DNA from: Desulfobacterales bacterium | GTDB taxonomy: Bacteria; Desulfobacterota; Desulfobacteria; Desulfobacterales; JANQIE01 | DNA length: 64,000 bases | NCBI GenBank assembly: GCA_028282295.1 | Contig: JANQIE010000180.1 | Location: forward strand, 4,854 to 68,853 | Direction of reading: 5' to 3' | Part shown: piece by piece, positions 1,523 through 23,664 of the stretch | How positions within the stretch are numbered: the stretch's first letter is position 1 | How the letters are laid out: each line of letters begins with the position of its first letter | Made by a program: the position numbers and the translations under genes | Notes under the pieces: model-generated | Told to the model about the DNA's origin: nothing | Database searches by the model: none | Seen by the model: the letters and a program-made list of their open reading frames with translations, nothing else

Positions 1523-1756
1523 TGATCCCTCCTTTGCTTGAACCTGGCGATGATAATCGAAACAATTTCTATTCAAACTACCAAATGCCGTGGTCAACGC
1601 AAGTAAAAAAGCATCGCGCTCAACCCTGGTTGCCGACCAGGGTCGGATGCTTATACTGTCATAAGCTTTAAATTGACATGCACAATCTGTCGCCAGTTCA
1701 AACCGATGAGAAGCAATGGCGACGCACCAACCATCCCCGCTGTCCGGAGTGAAACC

Positions 1757-3232
1757 ATGTCGACAACCGATTCGGCAATCAAACGGCACCTGTTGCGCTT
1801 TGGCGCGCTCTTAGGGTTTTTGGCCGCCTGGACCGCCGCGCCGGCGTTGGCGGCGCCCCCTGGCGATGCCGGCCAGCTCATTGTTTTCCTGCAACCGGGC
1901 AAACCGCTGAGTGAGCATTTCATTCGTCATCGGCTGCCCGCGCTTCGCAACCTGGCATCAGCCATGGGGCTGAAATTGGACACTGTCACTGCGCATCCCG
2001 GAGCGCCGCCGGACGTTGTCCTCACCCCTTTGATTGCTTACCAGAACCATCGCGGCCGCTCCATCTACCAAGGGCGCACGACTACCTTAAGCCGGTTGAA
2101 GAATTTCATTCGCACGTCACGCTTTGTTCCCCAGGGCTCGGCACCTTATATTCGTAAAAACATTCCGGTCTGGTCGACCGGTCGGGTCAATGTCTGGGCA
2201 CCGCTCAAAATAGCCGCCGTGACCGGCACACCTGCGCCTGATTACCGGCATGATGTCTTCGTCCGGGAAGCGTTGCGGGCGCTTAAAAAGGGATTCCGGC
2301 GGTTTCGCTTTGAGACGCAAATCGACTTGAAGCGCGCGGATCGCGGGTTTTACATGGATTTTTACCCCTGGCTGAGCCCGGACGGCACGCTGTTTTTATC
2401 ACTGGCGCTTTATTCGCAATTTGACTGCAAAACCCCGGTCTTTGAATTGAAAACCAAGCCGTTGCAGGGGCCCTGGCACAAACGACAGCGTTTGTTCCGG
2501 CAGGCTGCCGCCCTGCTCGAAAAACAGGTTGCCCTGGCGATCCAAAATCCAACCGGCGGCGATGGCTTCGAGCCAATATCCCGCCAAACACCGGCACTTA
2601 GCTGGACCGCCATCGGGTTTACCAAACCCGCGCCGCCGCCCCGGACAGCTTCCAGTCTGCCTGCCGTCACGCCGGCCCTTCCGCTACGCTGGCAATTGAC
2701 CACGGCCGGTCCTGATGAACCGCCCCTTATCCAGTTTCGTTTTGTGCCTCCATTGGACCAATATGCCGGTGAGATACCCCATGGCAGAGGTGAGATCACA
2801 TTTACGTCGAACCGGCACACTCACGGCGCGCGGGGATTTGTCGAAATCACGCCGCGTGCCGTTACCATGGGCGATGCCGTTCTGGACGAAGCCATCCAGG
2901 GCAGTCTGTTTCTCAACGCGCGCCGTTTTGCAACCATCCGTTTTACCATCGACAAAATCGAGGATAGCGGCCCGGCGCTTGAATTCGGACAACTTCTGCC
3001 GGCGGCTTTAGAAGGAACGCTGGCGCTGAAAGGCAAACAAAAAAAACTAAGGCCGGCAATCGAGTTTGAACCGATTTTGGATGCCGCCGGTCGCCCCCGC
3101 TTACTGGCGCGCGGCCGCTTTCAACTTGATGTGCGCGAATTTGCCATTGAAGGCGCCGAAGGACCGGCGCCGGCAAGATATCTGATGGTTTTTGACCTGA
3201 ATTTAGTATTCCGGCCGGCAGCGTTAGGGTGA
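1757..3232 (+). CDS. secreted protein of unknown function, C-terminal part YceI-like
   Basis: ATG 1757 follows GGAG. N-terminus has a signal-like LLRFGALLGFLAAWTAAPALAAP. The last ~170 aa (GEITFTSN...ATIRFTIDKIE...GTLALKGKQKKL...) resemble the YceI polyisoprenoid-binding fold; that domain call is tentative. Confidence 0.55.
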   Translation: MSTTDSAIKRHLLRFGALLGFLAAWTAAPALAAPPGDAGQLIVFLQPGKPLSEHFIRHRLPALRNLASAMGLKLDTVTAHPGAPPDVVLTPLIAYQNHRGRSIYQGRTTTLSRLKNFIRTSRFVPQGSAPYIRKNIPVWSTGRVNVWAPLKIAAVTGTPAPDYRHDVFVREALRALKKGFRRFRFETQIDLKRADRGFYMDFYPWLSPDGTLFLSLALYSQFDCKTPVFELKTKPLQGPWHKRQRLFRQAAALLEKQVALAIQNPTGGDGFEPISRQTPALSWTAIGFTKPAPPPRTASSLPAVTPALPLRWQLTTAGPDEPPLIQFRFVPPLDQYAGEIPHGRGEITFTSNRHTHGARGFVEITPRAVTMGDAVLDEAIQGSLFLNARRFATIRFTIDKIEDSGPALEFGQLLPAALEGTLALKGKQKKLRPAIEFEPILDAAGRPRLLARGRFQLDVREFAIEGAEGPAPARYLMVFDLNLVFRPAALG

Positions 3233-3267
3233 ATAACAATTAAAACGCGCCAACGCACCACCCAATA

Positions 3268-3396
3268 ATATTAAACCGGCAACTAAATATGTAAGCCGTC
3301 GTCATGCCGGACTTGATCCGGTATCCAGAATTGACGCTTGATTCCGGCGCTCGCCGGAATCACAATTTTAAAGGTATTTTATTGCCGGGTTAATAT
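3268..3396. mobile_element. 129-bp MITE-like element, family E, copy 1
   Basis: Terminal inverted repeats ATATTAAACCGGCAA / TTGCCGGGTTAATAT. About 95 percent identical by eye alignment to the reverse complement of 48380-48508. Internal hairpins GTCATGCCGGACTTGATCCGG and GATTCCGGCGCTCGCCGGAATC. Confidence 0.75.
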
Positions 3397-3686
3397 GAAC
3401 TACATTACATATTTATAACCTTGCTTGCCTTACCGCTTCCGCGCAACAAAAGCGGCGCCGCCCCCTCCCAAAAACGTTAAGTTACTATAATTTCTACCTT
3501 TTATCCCACTTAAGATCAAATAGAAATGCCGGCAGCGTTCTGGCGCAACTTTTGCTGAATGAACAGATCACAAACCTACCGCGTTATGATTTAACTTCAC
3601 AACCAATGATATAATCCCAGCGGCATTGACAACTGGGTCGTTTTGTTTTTGTTAGTTTTAATTGACCAAGATAACATAGGTAACAA

Positions 3687-3866
3687 ATGAAACTTAAAAG
3701 ACTATTAATCGGCCTTATCGCAAGTGTTTTTCTGCTAACAACTTACACCTTCGCGACAACCGTCGGCCAGGATACCGCCGCACCGGCAAATGAAGCGTTG
3801 TCTATTTTCCTGACAGGTGCAGGATGCATTGCTTTGGCCGGGATTGTGAGGCAAACCATGAAGTAA
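3687..3866 (+). CDS. 59-aa secreted mini-protein with PEP-CTERM-like C-terminal anchor
   Basis: MKLKRLLIGLIASVFLLTTYTFA signal peptide. C-terminal FLTGAGCIALAGIVRQTMK matches the LxGxGxxxLAGxxR(R) pattern of exosortase sorting signals but lacks the PEP triplet. Weak SD. Below the 60-aa track cut-off. Confidence 0.35.
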   Translation: MKLKRLLIGLIASVFLLTTYTFATTVGQDTAAPANEALSIFLTGAGCIALAGIVRQTMK

Positions 3867-4080
3867 AACCGCTTGAAGTTTTCATGCAATCAAGCCGTAT
3901 TAAAAAAAGGCGGATCATGCACCCCTTCCGGTTTTAGAACAGTAGCCACCGGATGCATGTTCCGCTGGTTGATAAAGCATGCATTGCCGCGCCGGACGAC
4001 TCCTAGCCGCAGACGGTGACGGCTCAACCGGCGCCGATGCATCTTTTATCGTCCCATCCTAAAACCGGCCCGTGTTCTTC

Positions 4081-4123
4081 AGGGCTCGTGTAAAAATAAT
4101 TTCACATTTTAGGCGCGAGCCCT
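4081..4123. repeat. 43-bp hairpin, family B (AGGGCTCG-loop-CGAGCCCT)
   Basis: AGGGCTCGTGTAAAAATAATTTCACATTTTAGGCGCGAGCCCT. The same unit is inverted at 32106-32148 and split at 289-469. Confidence 0.7.
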
Positions 4124-4129
4124 TAGCGC

Positions 4130-4165
4130 GTGTCCATCCGGAAATAGTAAATCTTGATCCAGGCC
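4130..4165. repeat. solo left end of MITE family A
   Basis: GTGTCCATCCGGAAATAGTAAATCTTGATCCAGGCC matches the first ~36 nt of the full copies. No matching right end nearby. Confidence 0.65.
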
Positions 4166-4286
4166 AGTGTCGGAAAAACAAAATGTGCTCGTCAATACGT
4201 CGACAGATTGACACAATCATTTTATTGACAGCCCCTATTAAAAACATAACTGTCTGAAATAATTTATAAAAACAAAATAAAAATCT

Positions 4287-4302
4287 TGGCACCCAAGTTG
4301 CA
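4287..4302 (+). promoter_or_regulatory. sigma54 (RpoN) promoter, perfect -24/-12 consensus
   Basis: TGGCAC-CCAAG-TTGCA at 4287-4302. An A/T-rich tract lies immediately upstream. Confidence 0.7.
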
Positions 4303-4312
4303 TTATGAAAAA

Positions 4313-4379
4313 AGCGAGAACCTCCTCATCCTCCTCCTTTCGTTAAAGGGCGACTTGACCCCAGTCGCCCTTTTTTTTT
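4313..4379 (+). ncRNA. candidate sigma54-dependent small RNA (~65 nt) with CU-rich anti-SD tract
   Basis: Start site predicted ~12 nt after the -12 GC. Body is CCTCCTCATCCTCCTCCTTTCG. It ends in an 8-bp GC hairpin plus T9. No credible ORF. Confidence 0.5.
4348..4379 (+). terminator. intrinsic terminator
   Basis: GGGCGACT (4348-4355), loop TGACCCC, AGTCGCCC (4363-4370), then TTTTTTTTT (4371-4379). Confidence 0.8.
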
Positions 4380-4785
4380 ACCTATCTACTGCCCCTGTCT
4401 CAGCCCCATCAATCACCTGCCGGATAGACATTTGCAAAAACGCCGTATTGAAATAAAAGATACGCCAATTTTTCTTTATGCTTGAATTCTTCATTTGCCC
4501 TGATTCTATTCCAATTTCTTCATTCCTATGACCCGTACAAAATAATTATTCCTTGCAAAGCCCGACGTGAAACGATTAAATACATGCATAGCTTATCGAC
4601 ATTGAATTTCTTCAAACGGTTTTGCAAAACTGCACAAACCCTCAGATCTCCATCGCCCAGTTTCCATCTTGGCCGTCCGGCGGTTTGTAGCACCTTTTAT
4701 TTTTTACGCGCTGGTGGTTTGATTCGTTGTGCGCGCACGAATCATGATGTAGCGACAAATCTCGCGCGCCGGGAGAGATTGTGTC

Positions 4786-5865
4786 ATGCCCTCTGAAAAG
4801 GATTTGACGGTTCTGGTCGTCGATGATGAGGAGCCGATCCTCGAACTGGTCAAGGAAACCTTGACTCGATTCGGTTTTGAGGTTTTCACCGCGGCTGATG
4901 CCGAGCAGGGGATTACCCTATTTCGCCGGGAGGATCCGGTCCTGATTCTGACCGACATCAACATGCCTCGCATGACCGGCATCGAGCTGCTGCGGGTGAT
5001 CAAAAAGGAATCTCCCACCACCCAGGTCATCGTTTTTTCAGGCGTCGGCACCACCGATCATGTTATCGAGACCCTGCGTCTGGGCGCCTGCGATTACATG
5101 ATCAAACCGTTTAACCTCGAGCTGCTGGTGCACACGGTCAACCGTTGCCTGGAACGTCACGATTTGATCAAGGAGCGCATGGGGCGCAAGGTCATGCTTG
5201 AGCAAACCGTGCATTCGCGCACCGCCGCGCTGACCCGCACATTGTATGAAACCGTCAAATCACTAGGGCGCCTTACGGAGATGCGCGATCCCTACACCGC
5301 CGGTCATCAGCAACGGGTGGCCTTGCTGGCTGTAGGCGTTGGCAAACATCTGGGGTTGACCCGGCGTGAACTGCAGGTGCTGCATATTGCCGGCCTGTTG
5401 CATGATATCGGCAAAGCGGCTGTACCGGTGGAATTGCTGGTCAAACCGACCGAACTGACCCCCCCTGAATTCCAACTCATGCGCTGCCATCCCAAAGCCG
5501 GTTACGACATCCTGAAGGATATCCCTTTTGCCGAATCATTGGGTCGCGATGTCGCCTCCATCGTGCAACAGCATCATGAACGGCTGGACGGCAGCGGCTA
5601 CCCGAACAAACTCACCGAGGTGCATCTTCTACTGGAAGCCAAAATCCTCAGTGTGGCCGATGCGTTTGAAGCCATGTCTTCCCATCGTCCCTACCGGCCG
5701 GCTTTGGGGATCGATTTTGCACGCACGGAAATCGCCCAACAAAGCGGCCAGGCCTATATGCCCGAGTGTGTTGATGCATGCTTGTATCTTATGGAGCAAA
5801 GCGGGTTCAATATGCAGGTGTTGTTTGATATGCTGCAGGAATTTAAATCGGAAATTTATAATTAG
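4786..5865 (+). CDS. response regulator with HD-GYP output domain (c-di-GMP phosphodiesterase type)
   Basis: N-terminal receiver (VLVVDDEEPILE...LTDINMP...KP). HD-GYP motifs HDIGK and HHERLDGSGYP. SD GGGAGAG precedes the ATG. Confidence 0.9.
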   Translation: MPSEKDLTVLVVDDEEPILELVKETLTRFGFEVFTAADAEQGITLFRREDPVLILTDINMPRMTGIELLRVIKKESPTTQVIVFSGVGTTDHVIETLRLGACDYMIKPFNLELLVHTVNRCLERHDLIKERMGRKVMLEQTVHSRTAALTRTLYETVKSLGRLTEMRDPYTAGHQQRVALLAVGVGKHLGLTRRELQVLHIAGLLHDIGKAAVPVELLVKPTELTPPEFQLMRCHPKAGYDILKDIPFAESLGRDVASIVQQHHERLDGSGYPNKLTEVHLLLEAKILSVADAFEAMSSHRPYRPALGIDFARTEIAQQSGQAYMPECVDACLYLMEQSGFNMQVLFDMLQEFKSEIYN

Positions 5866-15385: not shown

Positions 15386-17683
15386 TCAGTCCAAACCGAA
15401 CATATTGGCCAGGTCACTGTCGATCACATAAATACACATTTCCTTGGCCCCTTGACGCGAGTAGCGATATTTTGAGCAAAGGTTGTCGATCAGGTACGTT
15501 ACTTCGTTGCGGATGCGCTTATCGTAGGTCTTGAAGTCTTCGTCATCGAAGTCTTTAATCGCGCGCCGGAAATTTTCGTTTTCCAGAAACGGATCGAGGA
15601 CTTTTTCCTTCAGGTTATAGACGTAGCGATCGTAAAGCGATTGGTACAGATCGCTTGCAGGCAGGGCTTTGCCGTCAACCATGATTTCCTGGGTCAGGGT
15701 TTTGGAGGTATATTCCTTCTGGGTTTCGGACCGAAACGCTTTGCGGCGCTCGGTGTCAGCACGGGCGCCCAGTAGACGGCGCTCAATACCTTCGAAAAAA
15801 TCCTCCGTAATTTCAAGCTTTTCGCCGGTATAGGTGTTGGTTTCGACTTCCCCGATATCGAAATTGACCGCAAAAATATAGTTTTGGATATCACGCGCGA
15901 TCTGTTCTTCATTGTAATAATACAGCGACTCCTTGACCTCCTGCAAAACCGTGTAATTGTACAGGCGCAGCAACGAATCGAGAAAACCCTTGGGGATGGT
16001 CGCATCCCGGTCCTTGTACTGTTTCGCGAAAAAGGTTCGCAGGGCCGACATGTCGATGAGTTTGTCGTCGCGGGCGAAACTCGAATAAAACTCGTTGAAC
16101 AACTTTATCGAATCGCGGCCGCTGATGCCGTGTTCGCCCTCGTTGTCGGCTTCAGCGATTAGTTTGCGCCGCCGTTTGGCGGTAAACCGTTTGACATCCT
16201 CCTCAGAGAGCCAGGTGGGAATGTGGCCGGTGTAAATCTCCATTTTCAGCAACAACAAATCCTCGTCGCAGAACATGCTGTATTTTTCGCCATCGCCGAT
16301 CCAGTCGTACATTGTGTCGGATTTGATATTCAACCGCGAGGCGATGATGACGCGGGCGAAATTATGCAACACGCGCGGCAGGAAACTTTCATCGATATGA
16401 CGGCCGAACACGTTGCGGTAGATTTCCACCTCCGTGTTCAAATCCATGACGTACGGGATTTTGATGTTTTCGATCCGGTCGGAAAACGATTGGAAACTTT
16501 CAACGTTCGGCTTGTCCTCCGGATTCATGACCGCCAGCAACAGTGAATTGACGTTTTCCTCGATATCCTCAACCTTGTGCAGGCCTTCGCTGATGATGTT
16601 GTGCAATTCGATAAAGCGTTCGGTATTGTGGGATTTGACGTCCATCAGGGCATAGATGCCGTTGTTGGTTTTGGCGTACTGGGAAAACAGGTATTTGACT
16701 TCGTTGCTGTCTTTCAACGCACTGTTGATGCGATTTTGCAACATGGCGTTGGTCATGAAGTTCTGTTTGGTCGGCTTGTCGCCCGGATTGAACACACTGA
16801 TGCCGTCACCCAGCCGGCGATTGAACGTATACGGCCGCGCGTAGATCATCCGGAAGACTTTTTCAGGGCTTTTGAGCTTGTGCAGCAAAGACTGGTACAA
16901 GGAACTGCAGATGGTACAGGCGGTGTCCTTGAAAACCCAGTCATATTCTTTTTCGCTGGAGAATTTCCATTTAAATTCGCCGTTTTTAAACAGATCGTCG
17001 AAAAACTCGCGCCGGTAGGGTTTGGGGATCATCAGCAGCGGGTTGTCATGGCTGGGGCAGGGCACCTCCACGAATTCATCGGCAGAGGCGAGATGGTTAT
17101 TCGTTTTTAAGTCGTTCTTTTCGGCCCCCTGGCTGTTGTCCAACAACTGAAACGCCCGTTCGACCAACGGCAGCGGAATCATCTCGTTTTCCGGAAAACT
17201 GCCCAGCAGTTTGCGATCCAGTCGCCAAACCGTTTCATAACGGGTGCCCTCCTCAGTATTGGCATATTCTTCGAACTTGCGCAAAAGATTGTTTAAAAAT
17301 GTACTTTTACCGCATCCGGGAGGCCCCTCGAAGATATATATTTTGTTCTGTTGCGCCCCTAACTTCAAGGCTTCCACCAGACTGACCAGGCGGTTGGAGA
17401 ACAGGCGATCGGCAAAGAAAGGTTGATCCGAGCCCTCCACGAACAGTTTGTTGCAGTCATAGTAAACAAAATTGATCGACTCCGGATCTTTGGGATACTC
17501 GTCCACCCCTTCCCCCACGTAGGTTTTTACCATATCGTGGAAAATCTGGAAAACATTGCGGATGACGGCTTCGGGCTTGGCGACCATCAGTTTTAAAAAA
17601 TCGTCGAATGAGATCAGGTTGCGGCGGTCCTGCTCGCGCATGTGACGATTGAGATGTTGCATGGCCTTGTGGATCGGTTTCAT
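15386..17683 (-). CDS. PrkA-like AAA+ P-loop protein (second paralog, 765 aa)
   Basis: Walker A GPPGCGKST. Last gene of the prkA-yeaH-spoVR string on the same strand, 39 nt after spoVR. Confidence 0.65.
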   Translation of the reverse strand: MKPIHKAMQHLNRHMREQDRRNLISFDDFLKLMVAKPEAVIRNVFQIFHDMVKTYVGEGVDEYPKDPESINFVYYDCNKLFVEGSDQPFFADRLFSNRLVSLVEALKLGAQQNKIYIFEGPPGCGKSTFLNNLLRKFEEYANTEEGTRYETVWRLDRKLLGSFPENEMIPLPLVERAFQLLDNSQGAEKNDLKTNNHLASADEFVEVPCPSHDNPLLMIPKPYRREFFDDLFKNGEFKWKFSSEKEYDWVFKDTACTICSSLYQSLLHKLKSPEKVFRMIYARPYTFNRRLGDGISVFNPGDKPTKQNFMTNAMLQNRINSALKDSNEVKYLFSQYAKTNNGIYALMDVKSHNTERFIELHNIISEGLHKVEDIEENVNSLLLAVMNPEDKPNVESFQSFSDRIENIKIPYVMDLNTEVEIYRNVFGRHIDESFLPRVLHNFARVIIASRLNIKSDTMYDWIGDGEKYSMFCDEDLLLLKMEIYTGHIPTWLSEEDVKRFTAKRRRKLIAEADNEGEHGISGRDSIKLFNEFYSSFARDDKLIDMSALRTFFAKQYKDRDATIPKGFLDSLLRLYNYTVLQEVKESLYYYNEEQIARDIQNYIFAVNFDIGEVETNTYTGEKLEITEDFFEGIERRLLGARADTERRKAFRSETQKEYTSKTLTQEIMVDGKALPASDLYQSLYDRYVYNLKEKVLDPFLENENFRRAIKDFDDEDFKTYDKRIRNEVTYLIDNLCSKYRYSRQGAKEMCIYVIDSDLANMFGLD

Positions 17684-17722: not shown

Positions 17723-19381
17723 TCAGCTTAACGTTTTTTTGGATAATTTGCGTTTTTCCATTTTGTAGACCACACGCTTCCATTTGATCTGTGGCGGTGG
17801 CTTGGCTTCTTCCTTGGCCGGGCTGTAGCCCGGTATCATGGTCTGCGCCGGCCGCGCCGGCCCGGTGGCCACCACTTCGCTGGTCTCCAATTTGACCGGG
17901 TGGCCCCACAAAAATTCGATACCCATCATGGTATTGGCGATGTAATCCTTGACCAGTGGTTTGCCCTCGAATTTGTGCTTCAGGTAAAGTTCGCCGTTTT
18001 TGGTTCTTTGCTGATCAACCGTAATGTACGGTGGATGGTAAAGCGTATCGAGAAGCATCTGGCGGTAGGCTTTGGCCTTGCGGCTTTTGACGTAATACTG
18101 CCAGACCTTGCGTTTGGTATCCAGGTGCTTGCCCACCACAAACAATTTGTGACGGTCGACAAAATCCTGGTTCACGAAATTGGCGATGAACATATAATCG
18201 CTGAAGTTTTCACGCACATCAAAAATAGCCTGTATGCCGCGGCCGGTCTGGGCGTCGTAATGCTTGCGTTGGTCGGCGTCCTTGATCCGTTCGAAATCGA
18301 ACGAGAATTTGCCTTTGTCGGCCATTTCCTCGACCATGTAAAACAGGCGCATGCCGATGGCATAGGGATTCAGGCCGACGCGCGACAGGGACGTAACCCC
18401 GGAATGCACGCGGGCAAAATCGACTTCGTGGCCCTTGATGCGGTCGTCCTGCAAAAACAGTTTTTCATGCCAGTAGCTGGCCCAGCCTTCATTTAATATT
18501 TTGGTGCGAATCTGCGGCTGGAAAAAAATGCTGGTGTTGCGGATCACCTGGACCACCGATTTCATCCACAGGTTTTCTTCCTTGTTCAGAAAATCGGAGT
18601 ACTCCAGGACGAATTGCATCACATCCAGGCGATCCTTGGCTTTTTCAGTCCGGCTTTTTTTGTAAAGTGCTTCCAACTCAGGATACTTTTTGCCGATTTC
18701 CGAAAAGAACGTCTGTTCACCCGGGTCGCCGTACTGGCGGATACAGTCGTTGTATGCCTCGACCTCCTTGATGTAATCGGTGATTTTGACTTTCTTGATG
18801 TCTTGCAAAAACACGTCGAAATAGTAATCGAGCAGATTTTTGCGGGTGTTTGCATTCGGACCGTGAAAGCGCGACATCTCGTAGTAGTAGCCGACCAGGT
18901 TGTCCATGCCGCGCGAAAACTCGATGACGTAATCGACCCAGCGCCCCTTGTCGGCCCGCAGGCGGGCGATCATCCGTTTGTCGGAAAGCGCCTGACCGGT
19001 GAAATCGTATTCCCAGGTGTGCCGGAAGAACAGATTGTTCTGGAAAAAGTCGATGTGGGCCAGCACATGATAGAAGATCATCACGTTGAGCCAGTCCGGG
19101 TTGTTGTCGTTGTAGTAGGAAATCGCCGGCCGCGTATTGATGACCGTTTCGTAGGGGTTGCCCGGATACAACTCGTACCGGCCCTTTTCCTTTAAAACCT
19201 CGACATCGTGCACCCAGTAGTCATACAGGGTGGGGATCATGACCTTGGGGGTCAACTCAATCAGGTCCCGGTTGGTCACGATATATTCCAGGCTTTCTTT
19301 TTCAAATTGCAGACCGGCATCACGGGCGCGTTCCTTACACCCCTCCATGATGTTTTTGGTGTGCTGATCGATCAGTTCCAT
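17723..19381 (-). CDS. spoVR: SpoVR/YcgB family protein
   Basis: YETVINTRPAISYYNDNNP...VLAHIDFFQNN and overall length are typical of SpoVR/YcgB. Confidence 0.85.
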   Translation of the reverse strand: MELIDQHTKNIMEGCKERARDAGLQFEKESLEYIVTNRDLIELTPKVMIPTLYDYWVHDVEVLKEKGRYELYPGNPYETVINTRPAISYYNDNNPDWLNVMIFYHVLAHIDFFQNNLFFRHTWEYDFTGQALSDKRMIARLRADKGRWVDYVIEFSRGMDNLVGYYYEMSRFHGPNANTRKNLLDYYFDVFLQDIKKVKITDYIKEVEAYNDCIRQYGDPGEQTFFSEIGKKYPELEALYKKSRTEKAKDRLDVMQFVLEYSDFLNKEENLWMKSVVQVIRNTSIFFQPQIRTKILNEGWASYWHEKLFLQDDRIKGHEVDFARVHSGVTSLSRVGLNPYAIGMRLFYMVEEMADKGKFSFDFERIKDADQRKHYDAQTGRGIQAIFDVRENFSDYMFIANFVNQDFVDRHKLFVVGKHLDTKRKVWQYYVKSRKAKAYRQMLLDTLYHPPYITVDQQRTKNGELYLKHKFEGKPLVKDYIANTMMGIEFLWGHPVKLETSEVVATGPARPAQTMIPGYSPAKEEAKPPPQIKWKRVVYKMEKRKLSKKTLS

Positions 19382-19399: not shown

Positions 19400-20782
19400 T
19401 TAACTAATCAGTTTTTTGATGCCCTTAATCAACCGGGGTTCATCGGAGTCTTCCGGCAACACATCCATACGCAACAATTCCGGCCGGTCTTCCAGCAGCC
19501 CTGAATTGCGGATGTACTTTTCTACCTCGCTGCGCGTGTTCGAGCCATAGGTTCGTTCGGCAATGGTGATCCCGATGCGATTGGCCCAGTTCAGCATTTT
19601 CTTCAACTCCGGCACCGACTCCTTGCCGCCGGTGTCCCAGTCGTCGCCGTCGGTGCCGTGAAAGACATACAGGTTATAGTCCTGCTCCAGGCTTTCGGTT
19701 GTTACGATTTCGTTCACCAGTCGATAGGCCGATGCCACCTGGGTGCCGCCGGCCACCTTGGAATTGTAGTAGGTGTAAAAATCCTTGACCTCCTTGGCTT
19801 CGGTGTCGTGGACCACAAAGCGGGTTTCCACCTGCTTGTCGTACTGGTACAGCAGCCAACTGTAAATCAGCACATGTTGCGCCACCACCAGTTCGGAGGG
19901 CTTACCGCTCATGGAACCCGAGTAGTCTCGCACAAAAAATACCATGGCCTGGGACTCGTAATCCTTCTCGCGGGACAGAACCCGGTAAATCCGGTCACTC
20001 GGGGCAATTAGAAGCTCGGCCGGATCGACAGCCGTCTGGTCCGGAACCCGTCCTAAGCTGATATTGGTTTCCACGATTTTGCGCAGCGTGGCTTTTTTAT
20101 CCAGGATTTGTCCGAAACCGCGATGTTTGTCGGTCAGATCGTACGTGTAGCGGGTCAGGGCCCGTTTTTTGCCCTTGTCCTTCAAGTTGGGCAGTTCGAA
20201 TTTTTCCGTCAGGATTTTCCCTAAGTCGTAGGCGTTCGACTCCATTTCATGGGGCCCTTCTTCCCCCTGACCGGCGCCGCCGGCACCGGCCTGGCCTTCC
20301 TCGCGGACCGGTTGTTCGCCGATAACTTCGCCTTGCTCACCGTCACCGGTGCCGCCGGACGATTCACCTTCGCCCTGGGCTTCGTCCTTGAAGCTGTTGT
20401 CGTGCAGGAATTTTTCTTCCACCGTGGAGGGGACCACCACGACCTTGTCCTTGCCCCCCTTGCCCGGTTTGATCAGCCGTCCCACCCGAATCTTGGGCGG
20501 AAAACCGTCTTCCTCGCGCCATTTATCGCGCTCCATCAGCTCGTCGATGCTGCGGATGCTGTTGATATACCCACCGCGCGGCTTGTTCATGGCCTGTAAA
20601 AGTTGCAGGTCGTTGAAGCCATACAGCACTTCGGCCGGTGAGCGCACCGTGCCCTGCGGTTCGTCGGCGGGCAGGTCGTGGGTGCCCTCAAATTCGATTT
20701 CGGCGCGGATCTTCCGGTCCTGGTCCTCAGTCAGCCCGCGCTTTTGCAGCTTTTTATATAAGGATAGCAATTTGTCGTTCAT
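19400..20782 (-). CDS. yeaH: YeaH/YhbH (DUF444) vWA-like protein
   Basis: FFVRDYSGSMSG (DxSxS MIDAS-like), FHGTDGDDWD, and a Gly/Glu-rich linker. Canonical partner of PrkA. Confidence 0.85.
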   Translation of the reverse strand: MNDKLLSLYKKLQKRGLTEDQDRKIRAEIEFEGTHDLPADEPQGTVRSPAEVLYGFNDLQLLQAMNKPRGGYINSIRSIDELMERDKWREEDGFPPKIRVGRLIKPGKGGKDKVVVVPSTVEEKFLHDNSFKDEAQGEGESSGGTGDGEQGEVIGEQPVREEGQAGAGGAGQGEEGPHEMESNAYDLGKILTEKFELPNLKDKGKKRALTRYTYDLTDKHRGFGQILDKKATLRKIVETNISLGRVPDQTAVDPAELLIAPSDRIYRVLSREKDYESQAMVFFVRDYSGSMSGKPSELVVAQHVLIYSWLLYQYDKQVETRFVVHDTEAKEVKDFYTYYNSKVAGGTQVASAYRLVNEIVTTESLEQDYNLYVFHGTDGDDWDTGGKESVPELKKMLNWANRIGITIAERTYGSNTRSEVEKYIRNSGLLEDRPELLRMDVLPEDSDEPRLIKGIKKLIS

Positions 20783-20835: not shown

Positions 20836-22896
20836 CTACTTCTCGTCTTCCTGGGTGCAGAAATACTCAATGGTCTTCTGGGCGCAGGTTTGACAATAGC
20901 CGAGCTTGTTGAGCATGGAATCGATCATCCGGTCGTAAAGTTTCTGGTTCTCTTCGTTGGTGCGGTTGGCCAGCGCCCCGATCAGACTGCCGGCGCCGGC
21001 GATGTCCGATTTCAAACGGACATCGGTGACCGCCTTGACCAACTCCAGGTTGTCCATGAAATCATAATCCGGATTCATCGAAATCTTCTGGCCGTAGATT
21101 TTGCGAATCGAGGTGCGGAACGTTTCGCGCTGTTCCTCGGTTTTCAGTCCCAGGCGCTCTTCCACGCTGTTGATGTAGCGTTCATCGATTTTAAGGGCCT
21201 TGAGCTCACCCGACTGCGGGTCCTTGTATTTCCACATTTTGTCCGGCCCCAGATTCTCGGCATCGATGCCGATGATCATGTTGACGTAGTTCATCACGTC
21301 CTTGCGGATCGCCAACGGCTCGTCCATGTAGGCGTTGAACATTTCGGTCATGACCCGTTCGCGGTAAAGGCCCTTGGCGGTTTTCAGGTCCTCGATGTAT
21401 TTGGTGCGGTCGTTGGCGTCGGTGACATAATCGAGCACCGCCCGCTCCAGGGCGTTGAAAATATCGTAGGCGAACATACAGCGCCCTTCGTTGGTTTCCG
21501 AACTTTCAATCAGAAGCTGCACGGCCCGGCCTAAATTGCGTTGCCCCAGCCCCTTCTGGCCGAATCGTTTGGTGATGTCCGGCTCCTGGTTGAGGGTGTC
21601 GATGACTTCGGACAGGGTCTTGATGCTTTTCTCGCCGGCCACTTCGCCGGCCGCCAGCTTCATGGTTTCCACGGGCGTCAGCTTTTCACTGCGCGCCAGC
21701 CGGGTCAACACCACAGCCACCGAAGCGGCATAGTTCAGGTTCGGATCCTGGTGCAGGCTCTCGCCGCTCAAAGCGGTTTTGGCTTCGTTGCCGATGGCGT
21801 AGTCGGTCAGTTGCTCCTGTAATTTATAATTGGTATTGTGGGAAACATAGCTGATCCGGCAGCGGTCGACGATGGGGGCCTCTTCCTTTTCTGCCAGAAA
21901 GCGGTTGAATTCGGCGTTGTTGCTGGTGGCGATGATCAAGGTGTCGATGGGCCATTTGTAACCGTCGATTTCGATGGTCCGGTTCTGGATAACCCCCAGG
22001 TAGACCTGCACCAGATCCTTTTTGTTTTTGTAAATTTCGTCCGAGAAATGGATACCGCCGCCGGCCACACGGGCCAGGGCGCCCCGGCGCAGGTCGAAGC
22101 GGTAGGGGTTGTTGGTGTCGGTGAGATGCAACAGCCGCTGGATCGATTCCTCGCCCAATAAGTCCACGGCCGAAGAGGTGATTTTGTCTTTGGCCGGATA
22201 TTTGCCGGTGATGGTGCCCAGACTTTCGGTGAGCGGCACCGGAATGATCTCGATATGCTTGAGCATGGCGTCGACGCTGCCGTCGGTCTGGGTGCGAATG
22301 TCGTTGAGAATGTAAGCGCTGCAAGCCCCCAAGGGGCGGTAGTTGTCATAGAACTGTTCGATCTGTGTGTCGGAAAAACCGATCTTTTTGGCTAGATACG
22401 TCTTGCTGGCGTCGGTGGTTTCAAACAGGCTCATGGCCAGGATCATCGGATCTTCGTAAGTTTGGGATTCGATGGTGGCGATTTTGCCGTAGCTGCCCAA
22501 CTTGTCCATGTTTATGAAACGGAAGGTATATTTGCGATTGCCGTCGGAGGCCAAAAAATCCCGGTATTTGCCGCACAGGTATTCCACGAAGAATGTCTTG
22601 CCGTTGCCCGGCTCGCCAACCAGGACATAGGCCATTTCCTTGGAGGAGCCGCCTTCGGCCGCATCCTTGACAAAGGAGACGAAGCTGTTGATTTCATCGT
22701 ACATGCCGATCAGGTGCTTTTTGCCGGTTCGAAAGATCCCGAAATCGTAGGTCGTTTTGCCGTTAACCACGACCTTTTCGATGTCGTTGCCCAGGATCAT
22801 GCGCGAGACGCCCTGGAAGGCGTTCTCATAGCGACGGCTGCCTTCTTTTACGGCCTTCAGGTGGTGCGTTAATGTACGAGTGTTTTTTGCTGTCAT
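20836..22896 (-). CDS. prkA: PrkA/YeaG serine protein kinase family AAA protein
   Basis: Walker A GEPGNGKTF. 686 aa. First gene of the conserved prkA-yeaH-spoVR operon. Confidence 0.9.
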   Translation of the reverse strand: MTAKNTRTLTHHLKAVKEGSRRYENAFQGVSRMILGNDIEKVVVNGKTTYDFGIFRTGKKHLIGMYDEINSFVSFVKDAAEGGSSKEMAYVLVGEPGNGKTFFVEYLCGKYRDFLASDGNRKYTFRFINMDKLGSYGKIATIESQTYEDPMILAMSLFETTDASKTYLAKKIGFSDTQIEQFYDNYRPLGACSAYILNDIRTQTDGSVDAMLKHIEIIPVPLTESLGTITGKYPAKDKITSSAVDLLGEESIQRLLHLTDTNNPYRFDLRRGALARVAGGGIHFSDEIYKNKKDLVQVYLGVIQNRTIEIDGYKWPIDTLIIATSNNAEFNRFLAEKEEAPIVDRCRISYVSHNTNYKLQEQLTDYAIGNEAKTALSGESLHQDPNLNYAASVAVVLTRLARSEKLTPVETMKLAAGEVAGEKSIKTLSEVIDTLNQEPDITKRFGQKGLGQRNLGRAVQLLIESSETNEGRCMFAYDIFNALERAVLDYVTDANDRTKYIEDLKTAKGLYRERVMTEMFNAYMDEPLAIRKDVMNYVNMIIGIDAENLGPDKMWKYKDPQSGELKALKIDERYINSVEERLGLKTEEQRETFRTSIRKIYGQKISMNPDYDFMDNLELVKAVTDVRLKSDIAGAGSLIGALANRTNEENQKLYDRMIDSMLNKLGYCQTCAQKTIEYFCTQEDEK

Positions 22897-23155
22897 GTTA
22901 CCCTCCGTGGTAGTTTGGGCCTATCCAAAGTTATATCGAAATTGTGTGCGGCAATTGCCTTGCGATTACTTTTAAACCAACATCTGGTTCAATGGCCGGG
23001 AAGAGAAGAAAGGCCGAACGAATCGTTTATTTGTAACGTAGTCTTCAACGGAAAAGACCAAAAAAAGTCTAAACTATTATAACCACTTGCATTTACAATT
23101 CAACAGCGGTCGGAAACAGCATATGCTGCCGTGAAATTGACATCAGGGTAAATTT

Positions 23156-23170
23156 GCAATTGATGTGCCA
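23156..23170 (-). promoter_or_regulatory. sigma54 promoter upstream of prkA
   Basis: The minus strand reads TGGCAC-ATCAA-TTGCA (plus strand GCAATTGATGTGCCA). It lies ~260 nt upstream of the prkA ATG in a 770-bp gene-free region. Confidence 0.65.
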
Positions 23171-23664
23171 CGCGCCTTGGGACGAAATCCAATGAATTGA
23201 AATCCAATGCCATAAGTCCGTCCGGTCCGGTGGCCGACCTGGTTGTGGTTGTCGATCGGGCCGAGCAACAGATGGTTCGCTCGCAACCAGCGCGCCAAAT
23301 TTTTGACAAACATGCCTGTTGACCGCTTACGCGCAGCGCCATTGTGCAGCATCGAATATAAATGCATGCCCGCCCGCGAGTTGTCAGCCTTTACCGGTAT
23401 ACCGACTCGTTGGAGAAAACAGATATTCAGCCAAATTATCATATTGCTGTCAAGTATTTTGGCCCCGGTTGAAGATGGTATCTGCGCCGGTGCAGACGTC
23501 CCCCGGCAAATCGCATAAGTTGCTGTAATTACTGTTTCAAATCAATTGTGTGAACATTTGTATCCTTTTATTGATTATCGCCAGTAGTTGTTTTTTATTT
23601 TAACAGCTTGAAATTATGACAAAAAAAAGTTTTTTGATCTTCTTCTTGACAACCTGGGGGATGA

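Follow-up and report, generated by a model that had tools for sequence, protein, structure and literature searches.

The Qrr RNAs of Vibrio are made from stand-alone small RNA (sRNA) genes, each with a sigma54 promoter activated by the response-regulator enhancer-binding protein (EBP) LuxO and with an intrinsic terminator, and they act by pairing with mRNA leaders. They are about 100 nt long, fold into four stem-loops, share a conserved 32-nt core, depend on Hfq and come as several paralogues. Sulfate reducers and their relatives have unusually many sigma54 EBPs, and to our knowledge post-transcriptional regulation in these bacteria, the uncultured relatives included, is almost unexplored. Here we analyse a 64-kb stretch of contig JANQIE010000180.1 from a Desulfobacterales bacterium (64,000 nt, referred to below as the window), in which a first-pass annotation had placed a candidate sigma54-dependent anti-Shine-Dalgarno (aSD) sRNA at 4287-4379 on the + strand. 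Our preferred reading, to which we give a probability of about one half, is that this unit would specify a stand-alone RNA of ~65 nt that depends on sigma54 and an EBP and acts in trans by occluding ribosome-binding sites (RBSs).

In their probable way of working, the closest described RNAs are the alpha-r14 or 'cuckoo' sRNAs, to which CcsR1-4 of Rhodobacter also belong. In NfeR1 of Sinorhizobium, the alpha-r14 aSD motif CCUCCUCCC silences mRNAs by RBS occlusion at the translation-initiation region; the NfeR1 gene has LsrB as its transcriptional activator and NtrC as its repressor, with no sigma54 promoter reported (PMC10746234). Among sulfate reducers, excerpts of two reports on Desulfovibrio vulgaris describe noncoding RNAs (ncRNAs) that depend on sigma54 and an EBP, namely Dv_sRNA2, located 3' of DVU0679, and four ncRNAs in the sigma54 regulome, which belong to the DVU0653, DVU1419 and DVU2359 regulons besides that of DVU0679 and whose function is given there as unknown (PMC3333781, PMC4641369). 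The remark in the first-pass annotation that sigma54-driven sRNAs exist elsewhere is borne out by these excerpts. CJnc230 (FlmE) of Campylobacter jejuni is RpoN-dependent and represses its target mRNAs through a single-stranded aSD stretch (PMC11187230). It is because of these precedents (the alpha-r14 motif, the Desulfovibrio ncRNAs and the RpoN-dependent aSD sRNA of Campylobacter) that we favour an EBP-gated sigma54 sRNA at this locus. The sequence is new; the kind of RNA, a sigma54-dependent sRNA of the aSD type, is already known.

Architecture of the unit at 4287-4379

The unit begins with an exact consensus sigma54 (-24/-12) promoter, TGGCAC-CCAAG-TTGCA (4287-4302, +), in which the -24 GG and the -12 GC (4300-4301) stand at consensus spacing. 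The start site deduced from sigma54 promoter geometry lies near 4313, 12 nt 3' of the -12 C at 4301, and gives a predicted primary transcript of ~63-67 nt (4313-4379, +). Direct reading places three CCTCC copies at 4321-4325, 4330-4334 and 4333-4337 (+), the second beginning 28 nt past TTGC. At 4345-4379 (+) lies an intrinsic terminator, its 11-bp stem (AAAGGGCGACT / AGTCGCCCTTT) capped by the loop UGACCCC and followed by nine U, the corresponding T9 run occupying 4371-4379. Its core stem, GGGCGACT at 4348-4355 and AGTCGCCC at 4363-4370, is lengthened to 11 bp by AAA/TTT pairs (4345-4355 / 4363-4373), and the repeat search returned the inverted repeat as 100% complementary. The 45 nt preceding the T run fold at -16.9 kcal/mol, and a terminator scan found this site to be the sole + strand terminator-like element in 3200-4900. 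The promoter coordinates and the three CCUCC copies of the first-pass annotation thus hold base for base, its 8-bp hairpin with nine T can be extended, and its picture of a textbook sigma54 promoter joined to a strong terminator stands. At the sequence level the unit would give a short terminated transcript lacking an open reading frame (ORF), with no Shine-Dalgarno (SD)-preceded start codon in 4313-4379.

Folding of the 67-nt RNA gave -20.6 kcal/mol, as compared with -10.3 +/- 2.2 kcal/mol for shuffled sequences (z = -4.66). The predicted fold has two hairpins in all. The first (4313-4344, +), present in both the minimum free energy and the centroid structures of this single-sequence prediction, would have a weak 7-bp stem, AGCGAGA at 4313-4319 with UUUCGUU at 4338-4344, and would display the 18-nt seed loop ACCUCCUCAUCCUCCUCC (4320-4337, +), which holds the three CCUCC copies and one CCUCCUCC. 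The body of the RNA had been described as unpaired; a stem is now predicted to close it, and the seed loop itself stays open. With its following bases the loop reads CCUCCUUUC, which we take to be similar to the 3' end of 16S rRNA.

A coding function for the unit is very improbable. It could in principle lie in the 13-codon ORF MKKARTSSSSSFR* (ATG 4305 to TAA 4344-4346, +), which is rich in serine, with five consecutive Ser codons and a stop codon that runs into the terminator stem, as in an attenuator, or in a small ORF of the opposite strand (4303-4238, 21 aa, or 4292-4059, 77 aa), where the sequence reads AAAGGAGGAGGATGAGGAGG and so offers a GGAGG RBS. The ATG at 4305, however, sits 8 nt 5' of the predicted sigma54 start and has no SD; we therefore regard this ORF as fortuitous, in agreement with its earlier dismissal. 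There is no amino-acid biosynthesis gene downstream, and families A, C and D, described below, have no ATG in the region equivalent to 4305. On the - strand the spacing from SD to start is at least 17 nt, and the ORFs have neither a family match nor other support. No other convincing reading frame was found in 3850-4800.

The first-pass annotation recognized no named family and called for an Rfam scan. Against Rfam 15, which includes Qrr, GlmY/GlmZ, alpha-r14, CyaR and MicX, the whole window gave no match at the gathering threshold, and the best sub-threshold scores in 4150-4800 (MicX, 23.5 bits against a threshold of 75; CyaR, 23.5 against 47) both came from the terminator alone. The resemblance to known systems is thus one of parts. 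Like the alpha-r14 or 'cuckoo' sRNAs, the predicted RNA would carry its pyrimidine aSD seed in an unpaired loop and has redundant seeds: CCUCCUCC matches 8 of the 9 bases of CCUCCUCCC, and a second CCUCCUC is present. Unlike those RNAs, which belong to Alphaproteobacteria and have three hairpins with one motif each, it is half their size and holds both seeds in one loop. Three hairpins with CCUCCUCCC unpaired were not found in the unit, nor was any sequence or Rfam similarity to alpha-r14, so that the working principle may be shared and membership is not.

The D. vulgaris ncRNAs, compared here by their description in the excerpts cited above, are similarly small, come from sulfate reducers in the broad sense, and have -24/-12 promoters by prediction and enhancer-binding regulators dedicated to them. 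Of the four, at least those 3' of DVU0653 and DVU0679 adjoin their EBP gene, in contrast to the window, which has no EBP in 64 kb and no cognate sigma54-dependent response regulator beside the unit as at Dv_sRNA2; the excerpts report no aSD seed. CJnc230 differs in being an RNase processing product of the flgE mRNA 3' end, in having an RpoD promoter as well, in its length (88-98 nt) and in its seed, CCUU (PMC11187230), and it is unrelated to the window unit in sequence and taxon. In contrast to Qrr, the unit has no Rfam match and no paralogue in the window, where the seed-loop 17-mer occurs once. On these comparisons the RNA would probably resemble alpha-r14/NfeR1 in its action and, in how it is switched on, Qrr or the sigma54 ncRNAs of Desulfovibrio.

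Upstream of the promoter lies a candidate enhancer, or upstream activating sequence, a region of short repeats at 4168-4254 (+), -120 to -35 relative to the promoter. It contains TGTCG (4168-4172), CGTCAA (4190-4195), a direct repeat of ATTGACA (4207-4213 and 4224-4230) with 17-nt spacing, GACAG (4202-4206 and 4227-4231) and CTGTC (4250-4254), the second GACAG forming a 5-bp inverted repeat with CTGTC. An A/T-rich tract at 4255-4286 (+), a possible bend or IHF site, separates it from the promoter; GC content is 0.38 over 4201-4600. These repeats and the tract, which had been noted earlier at approximate positions, were located by direct reading. The motifs are short and do not appear in the repeat listing (seed 6, minimum length 8). 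Their position suits EBP sites, and family C has sites of the GTCAA-N6-TGACA type at a comparable distance. Taking the TTGACA repeats for part of a sigma70 promoter was rejected, as scanning and direct reading found no -10 element at a workable spacing, and the promoter scan found no sigma70-like promoter adjoining the unit. A search of the window for Hfq, CsrA, IHF and RpoN found none of them.

Based on this architecture we can propose a mechanism. An EBP encoded outside the window would bind the repeat region at ~4168-4254 and activate sigma54-RNA polymerase at TGGCAC-N5-TTGCA; transcription would start near 4313 and stop at the hairpin and U9. The resulting RNA would display the 18-nt pyrimidine loop, a copy of the aSD tail of 16S rRNA, which could pair in trans with RBSs of the GGAGG type and occlude 30S binding, leading to less translation and probably to lower stability of the target mRNAs. 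The sequence elements, their rarity, the fold prediction, the want of a plausible ORF and the existence of conserved same-layout units in related lineages are what the analysis shows; that the unit is transcribed, that it needs sigma54 and an EBP, and that its RNA acts in trans on particular targets by covering their SDs are inferred. GGAGG occurs 3-12 nt ahead of the start codon at 19 sites in the window (ORFs of at least 80 aa), those of prkA and phaR included, which makes the seed a complement of RBSs that are really in use in the organism. This count agrees with the earlier statement that GGAGG precedes many genes here.

It could also be that the unit serves no purpose of its own: a sigma54 site that is fortuitous or in decay would then happen to lie beside the terminator of upstream transcripts, and the CU-rich run would be simple sequence. 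No + strand terminator was detected in 3866-4345, so that upstream transcripts, which could include that of a 59-aa ORF at 3687-3866, may end at the unit; no conserved copy of the unit came up in any collection scanned; and sigma54-like sites with one mismatch allowed are at chance level (5 against 3.4 expected, not significant). We nevertheless consider this explanation unlikely. Perfect TGGCAC-N5-TTGCW sites are rare, the window having two where 0.16 are expected, a count that none of 100 shuffles reached, and both are sensibly placed, being intergenic and correctly oriented. The composite of promoter, CCTCCTC and T run described below would be expected only ~3e-7 times per 64 kb by our own arithmetic, which assumes uniform composition, and three conserved families, independent of one another, space promoter and CCUCC just as the unit does.

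Units of the same layout in other genomes

Pattern scans covered 185,579 species-representative genomes (596 Gb). The composite TGGCAC-N5-TTGC-N{12,30}-CCTCCTC-N{15,45}-T7 gave 13 matches, compared with ~2.5 expected by the same arithmetic, and 6 of the 13 are in Thermodesulfobacteriota, the phylum to which the window belongs. A looser form, TGGCAC-N5-TTGC-N{12,30}-CCTCC-N{15,45}-T7, returned at least 119 loci. Although the pattern did not demand one, a stable hairpin abuts the T run in 77 of 120 units (the matches listed plus the window unit). Among the matches listed, same-layout units are over-represented in Thermodesulfobacteriota, and they cluster into family A (31 loci), families C and D (3 loci each) and several pairs (Acidobacteriota, Gammaproteobacteria and others). 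All three families place CCUCC 28-29 nt past TTGC, with the terminator directly after it. The layout is therefore recurrent and conserved in other Thermodesulfobacteriota. Twelve same-layout loci sampled for Rfam, seven of them from families A, C and D and including L140 and L204 of family A, contained no family match among their units, the lone match being a tRNA.

Family A comprises, among the matches listed, 31 loci (L135, L140, L149 ... L249) in Desulfomonile, Desulfomonilaceae, Syntrophaceae and metagenome-assembled genomes (MAGs) labelled 'delta proteobacterium'; at L149, for example, the unit is on the - strand and begins at 5552 once the locus is reverse-complemented. The RNA would be ~55 nt long. 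The spacer from -11 to -1 is variable, conservation sets in from about +1, UUCCUCCUACGCCAACUG...CAGUUGG is invariant, and the palindrome TGTTCAAAAATTTGAACA lies at about -125. Judged from sequence, conservation that sets in at the start site together with an upstream palindrome is the signature of an EBP-activated transcript.

Family C, from Desulfobacterales, is found at L136 (2453-2538, +), L187 (6748-6833, -) and L189 (6183-6267, +); it contains …UCUCCCUCCUCUUAGGGGCAAGGC… and is preceded by two GTCAA-N6-TGACA-type sites. Family D, from Syntrophobacteraceae-like MAGs, is found at L173 (4128-4214, +), L225 (7562-7655, -) and L232 (7227-7320, -). Its signature is CUCUUUCCUCCUC(G/A)GAAGC and then a hairpin whose loop is GCCCC; two compensatory pairs occur in this hairpin among the three sequences, and upstream repeats of the GATTATGGCGTGATTAT type are present. 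Since the repeats upstream of families C and D differ, different regulators are implied. In two of three loci (L173 and L225) family D is convergent with its neighbour, for which reason it cannot be a leader and must be a stand-alone gene.

The window unit resembles families A, C and D in layout, size, CCUCC spacing, terminator and the presence of an upstream repeat or palindrome, and it shares with family D both CCUCCUC and a CCCC(A) terminator loop. It differs from all three in primary sequence, in having two seeds where the families have one, and in its upstream motifs, which again imply different EBPs; families A and C, furthermore, have a conserved downstream gene. The family A palindrome is absent 5' of 4287, and the unit is not a member of that family. 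We treat it as a sequence singleton that shares its architecture with the three families.

More tentatively, and with the odds rather against it, one may envisage the window unit as one representative of a widespread and uncatalogued class of 55-70 nt RNAs, switched by sigma54 and EBPs, that copy the aSD tail of 16S rRNA, with CCUCC fixed at ~+17 and the terminator next, especially common in Thermodesulfobacteriota and numbering one per EBP regulon; some members, such as family A, may have been captured as cis leaders. If such a class exists, signal-specific EBPs could throttle initiation at strong GGAGG sites, and if our reading of the window unit is true, a sigma54-switched aSD mimic would let a tightly gated transcriptional switch, specific to one signal, act directly on the initiation of translation. 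Dozens of Thermodesulfobacteriota species conserve the layout, each family with an upstream palindrome of its own, which makes these units candidates for new RNA families, and families A, C and D offer handles for matching orphan EBPs to their targets. The wider class may be worth more as a lead than the single locus.

Two further sets of sigma54-promoter elements came up in the scans. Desulfonema magnum (NZ_CP061800.1) has at least seven near-identical copies of one such element (TGGCACGAAAGTTGCATACAGAGGCGGCCTCCGGG…; L137, L139, L157, L169, L185, L208 and L222), which is probably part of a repeat or mobile element. On a metagenome contig (Ga0190275_10020949, -; L118, unit starting at 1757 of the reverse-complemented locus) there is a sequence-unrelated unit of the same design, with a good sigma54 promoter, a hairpin with the loop UAUCCUCCUCCUCCUCCG and a GC-rich terminator with U7.

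Downstream gene, targets and conservation

The next gene on the + strand, at 4786-5865, lies 407 nt past the unit and encodes a protein with a receiver and an HD-GYP domain (Pfam Response_reg and HD_5), as the first-pass annotation had it; the protein has no AAA+ or DNA-binding domain. The sigma54 promoter could serve this gene, with the unit opening a 470-nt 5' untranslated region as a cis-acting leader or attenuator whose terminator lets polymerase pass only under some conditions; the short RNA would then be a by-product, or the unit would have a dual function. The gene is on the same strand and no sigma70-like promoter was detected in 4380-4785. With 83% complementarity (repeat I3) between the segment AAAAAAGCGAGA (4308-4319) and the terminator's 3' half, an alternative pairing could form. 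Support also comes from the families: family A lies 25-40 nt 5' of a conserved secreted FG-GAP-like gene (~525 aa) in 30 of the 31 loci listed, and family C has a same-strand DUF456 gene 110-165 nt downstream at all three loci. Because family A adjoins a conserved gene, cis action must be allowed for this layout, and family A could itself be a leader, an attenuator or an RNA of dual function. On its other side family A follows genes for metallo-beta-lactamase-fold, FmdE-like and NUDIX-like proteins, the latter two judged from their sequences only.

For the window unit, we regard a leader as unlikely. The 407-nt gap far exceeds the one in family A, a strong terminator (11 bp and U9) intervenes and there is no convincing antiterminator, the I3 arm beginning 5' of the predicted start. 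The Rfam scan returned no riboswitch or leader family, and family D has the same layout without a downstream gene. Homologues of the HD-GYP regulator in relatives lack a sigma54 promoter, which together with the 407-nt gap favours an independent gene.

Even as a sigma54-dependent sRNA, the RNA might work in another mode than general SD occlusion: it could titrate a G-rich RNA or a protein that binds pyrimidines, acting as a sponge or decoy, or use its CCCC terminator loop to pair at sites other than the SD. A bare CCUCC seed would be promiscuous, the terminator loop UGACCCC shares its CCCC(A) core with the family D loops, and GlmY is a sigma54-dependent sRNA that acts by protein sequestration. 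Such modes seem distinctly unlikely here, as the 16S-like CCUCCUUUC and CCUCCUCC are motifs tied experimentally to RBS occlusion in alpha-r14 and the unit contains neither GGA nor another known protein-binding motif.

Several results weigh against a stand-alone, EBP-gated RNA that occludes RBSs in trans. On the side of its regulation, no EBP gene was found in the 64 kb when the GAFTGA motif or an NtrC AAA+ domain was sought, and the upstream repeats are short and could not be matched to a known EBP site. On the side of its structure, the stem that would close the seed loop is weak, with A-U and G-U pairs, and with no sigma70-like promoter between the terminator and the HD-GYP gene, read-through could matter; the position of family A, close before its FG-GAP-like gene, points the same way. 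On the side of its targets, the generic CCUCC seed offers no obvious specificity, and RNAduplex, run over 422 candidate start regions of the window, placed its top matches inside other genes, the mean for in-window targets (-13.2 kcal/mol) lying close to the background (-12.1 kcal/mol). On the side of its relatives, no orthologue of the unit was found in the genome or metagenome pattern scans. The family A model (R1) gives 4307-4379 only 7.3 bits (E = 7) and does not rank it as its top match, and the family D model (R2), built from three sequences only, gives the unit 13.6 bits with E about 0.1, aligning 4312-4379 over the full model length and ranking it second in the window after a plain hairpin.

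The search for orthologues of the unit was extended by way of its neighbours. The closest protein relatives, from Desulfobacterales and 52-66% identical overall, are those of the HD-GYP regulator (64% identity), a ROK kinase (~65%, Desulfosarcina-like) and a YceI-like protein (52-57%). Judging from these homologues, the window is from a Desulfobacterales-like member of the Thermodesulfobacteriota distant from anything sequenced, which agrees with the earlier choice of Desulfobacterota as the relatives to be searched. At ten loci around homologues of the three proteins there was neither a shared neighbourhood nor a comparable unit. Synteny through the HD-GYP regulator failed because relatives, at best 64% identical, have other neighbourhoods and no unit; the ROK kinase and the YceI-like gene likewise led to a downstream context that is not conserved and to no unit. 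A strict pattern, the promoter followed by CCTCCTCNNCCTCC, gave 13 genome and 36 metagenome matches, all of them coding or low-complexity (Leu- or Glu-rich tracts) and none a homologue. An inositol-monophosphatase-family gene might have pointed to synteny of the window with family D, but this was discarded because the two proteins are only 26% identical, and a search of the window for a homologue of the FG-GAP-like gene of family A found none.

Other features of the window

The second perfect sigma54 promoter, TGGCACATCAATTGCA (23155-23170, -), lies ~250 nt 5' of a prkA-DUF444-spoVR-prkA string of genes (20836-22896, 19400-20782, 17723-19381 and 15386-17683, all -). Because this site fronts the prkA-DUF444-spoVR operon, the host probably uses sigma54. 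A further ~125 nt 5' of the promoter is TGTCAAAAATTTGG, the core of which, TCAAAAATTTG, matches the family A palindrome.

A sigma54 site with one mismatch, TGGCGCAACTTTTGCT (3541-3556, +), stands 130 nt 5' of the 59-aa ORF at 3687-3866 (+). The predicted product has no Pfam match. Its N terminus looks like a signal segment, and at the C terminus a hydrophobic stretch leads into basic residues, an arrangement resembling a sorting signal.

The palindrome ATGCAT occurs 15 times in the window and is clustered, three copies falling inside 90 nt (3953-3958, 3979-3984 and 4037-4042), 245-335 nt 5' of the sRNA promoter. Further copies are at 3824 and 4584, and another, at 23362, is ~190 nt 5' of the prkA sigma54 promoter. 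ATGCAT may be a transcription-factor binding site.

The YceI-domain protein (~490 aa, 1673-3232, +) has clear orthologues throughout Desulfobacterales, with 52-57% identity, and in three of the four relatives examined its gene is preceded by that of a ~200-aa YceI paralogue. The neighbourhood 3' of the YceI-domain gene differs in every genome examined; the segment 3233-4785 may therefore be specific to this lineage. Within this gene-poor region, at 3300-3365 (+), are two short palindromic units of the CCGGA…TCCGG type, gccggacttgatccggtatcc and ttccggcgctcgccggaatc, which resemble intergenic repeats of the REP type.

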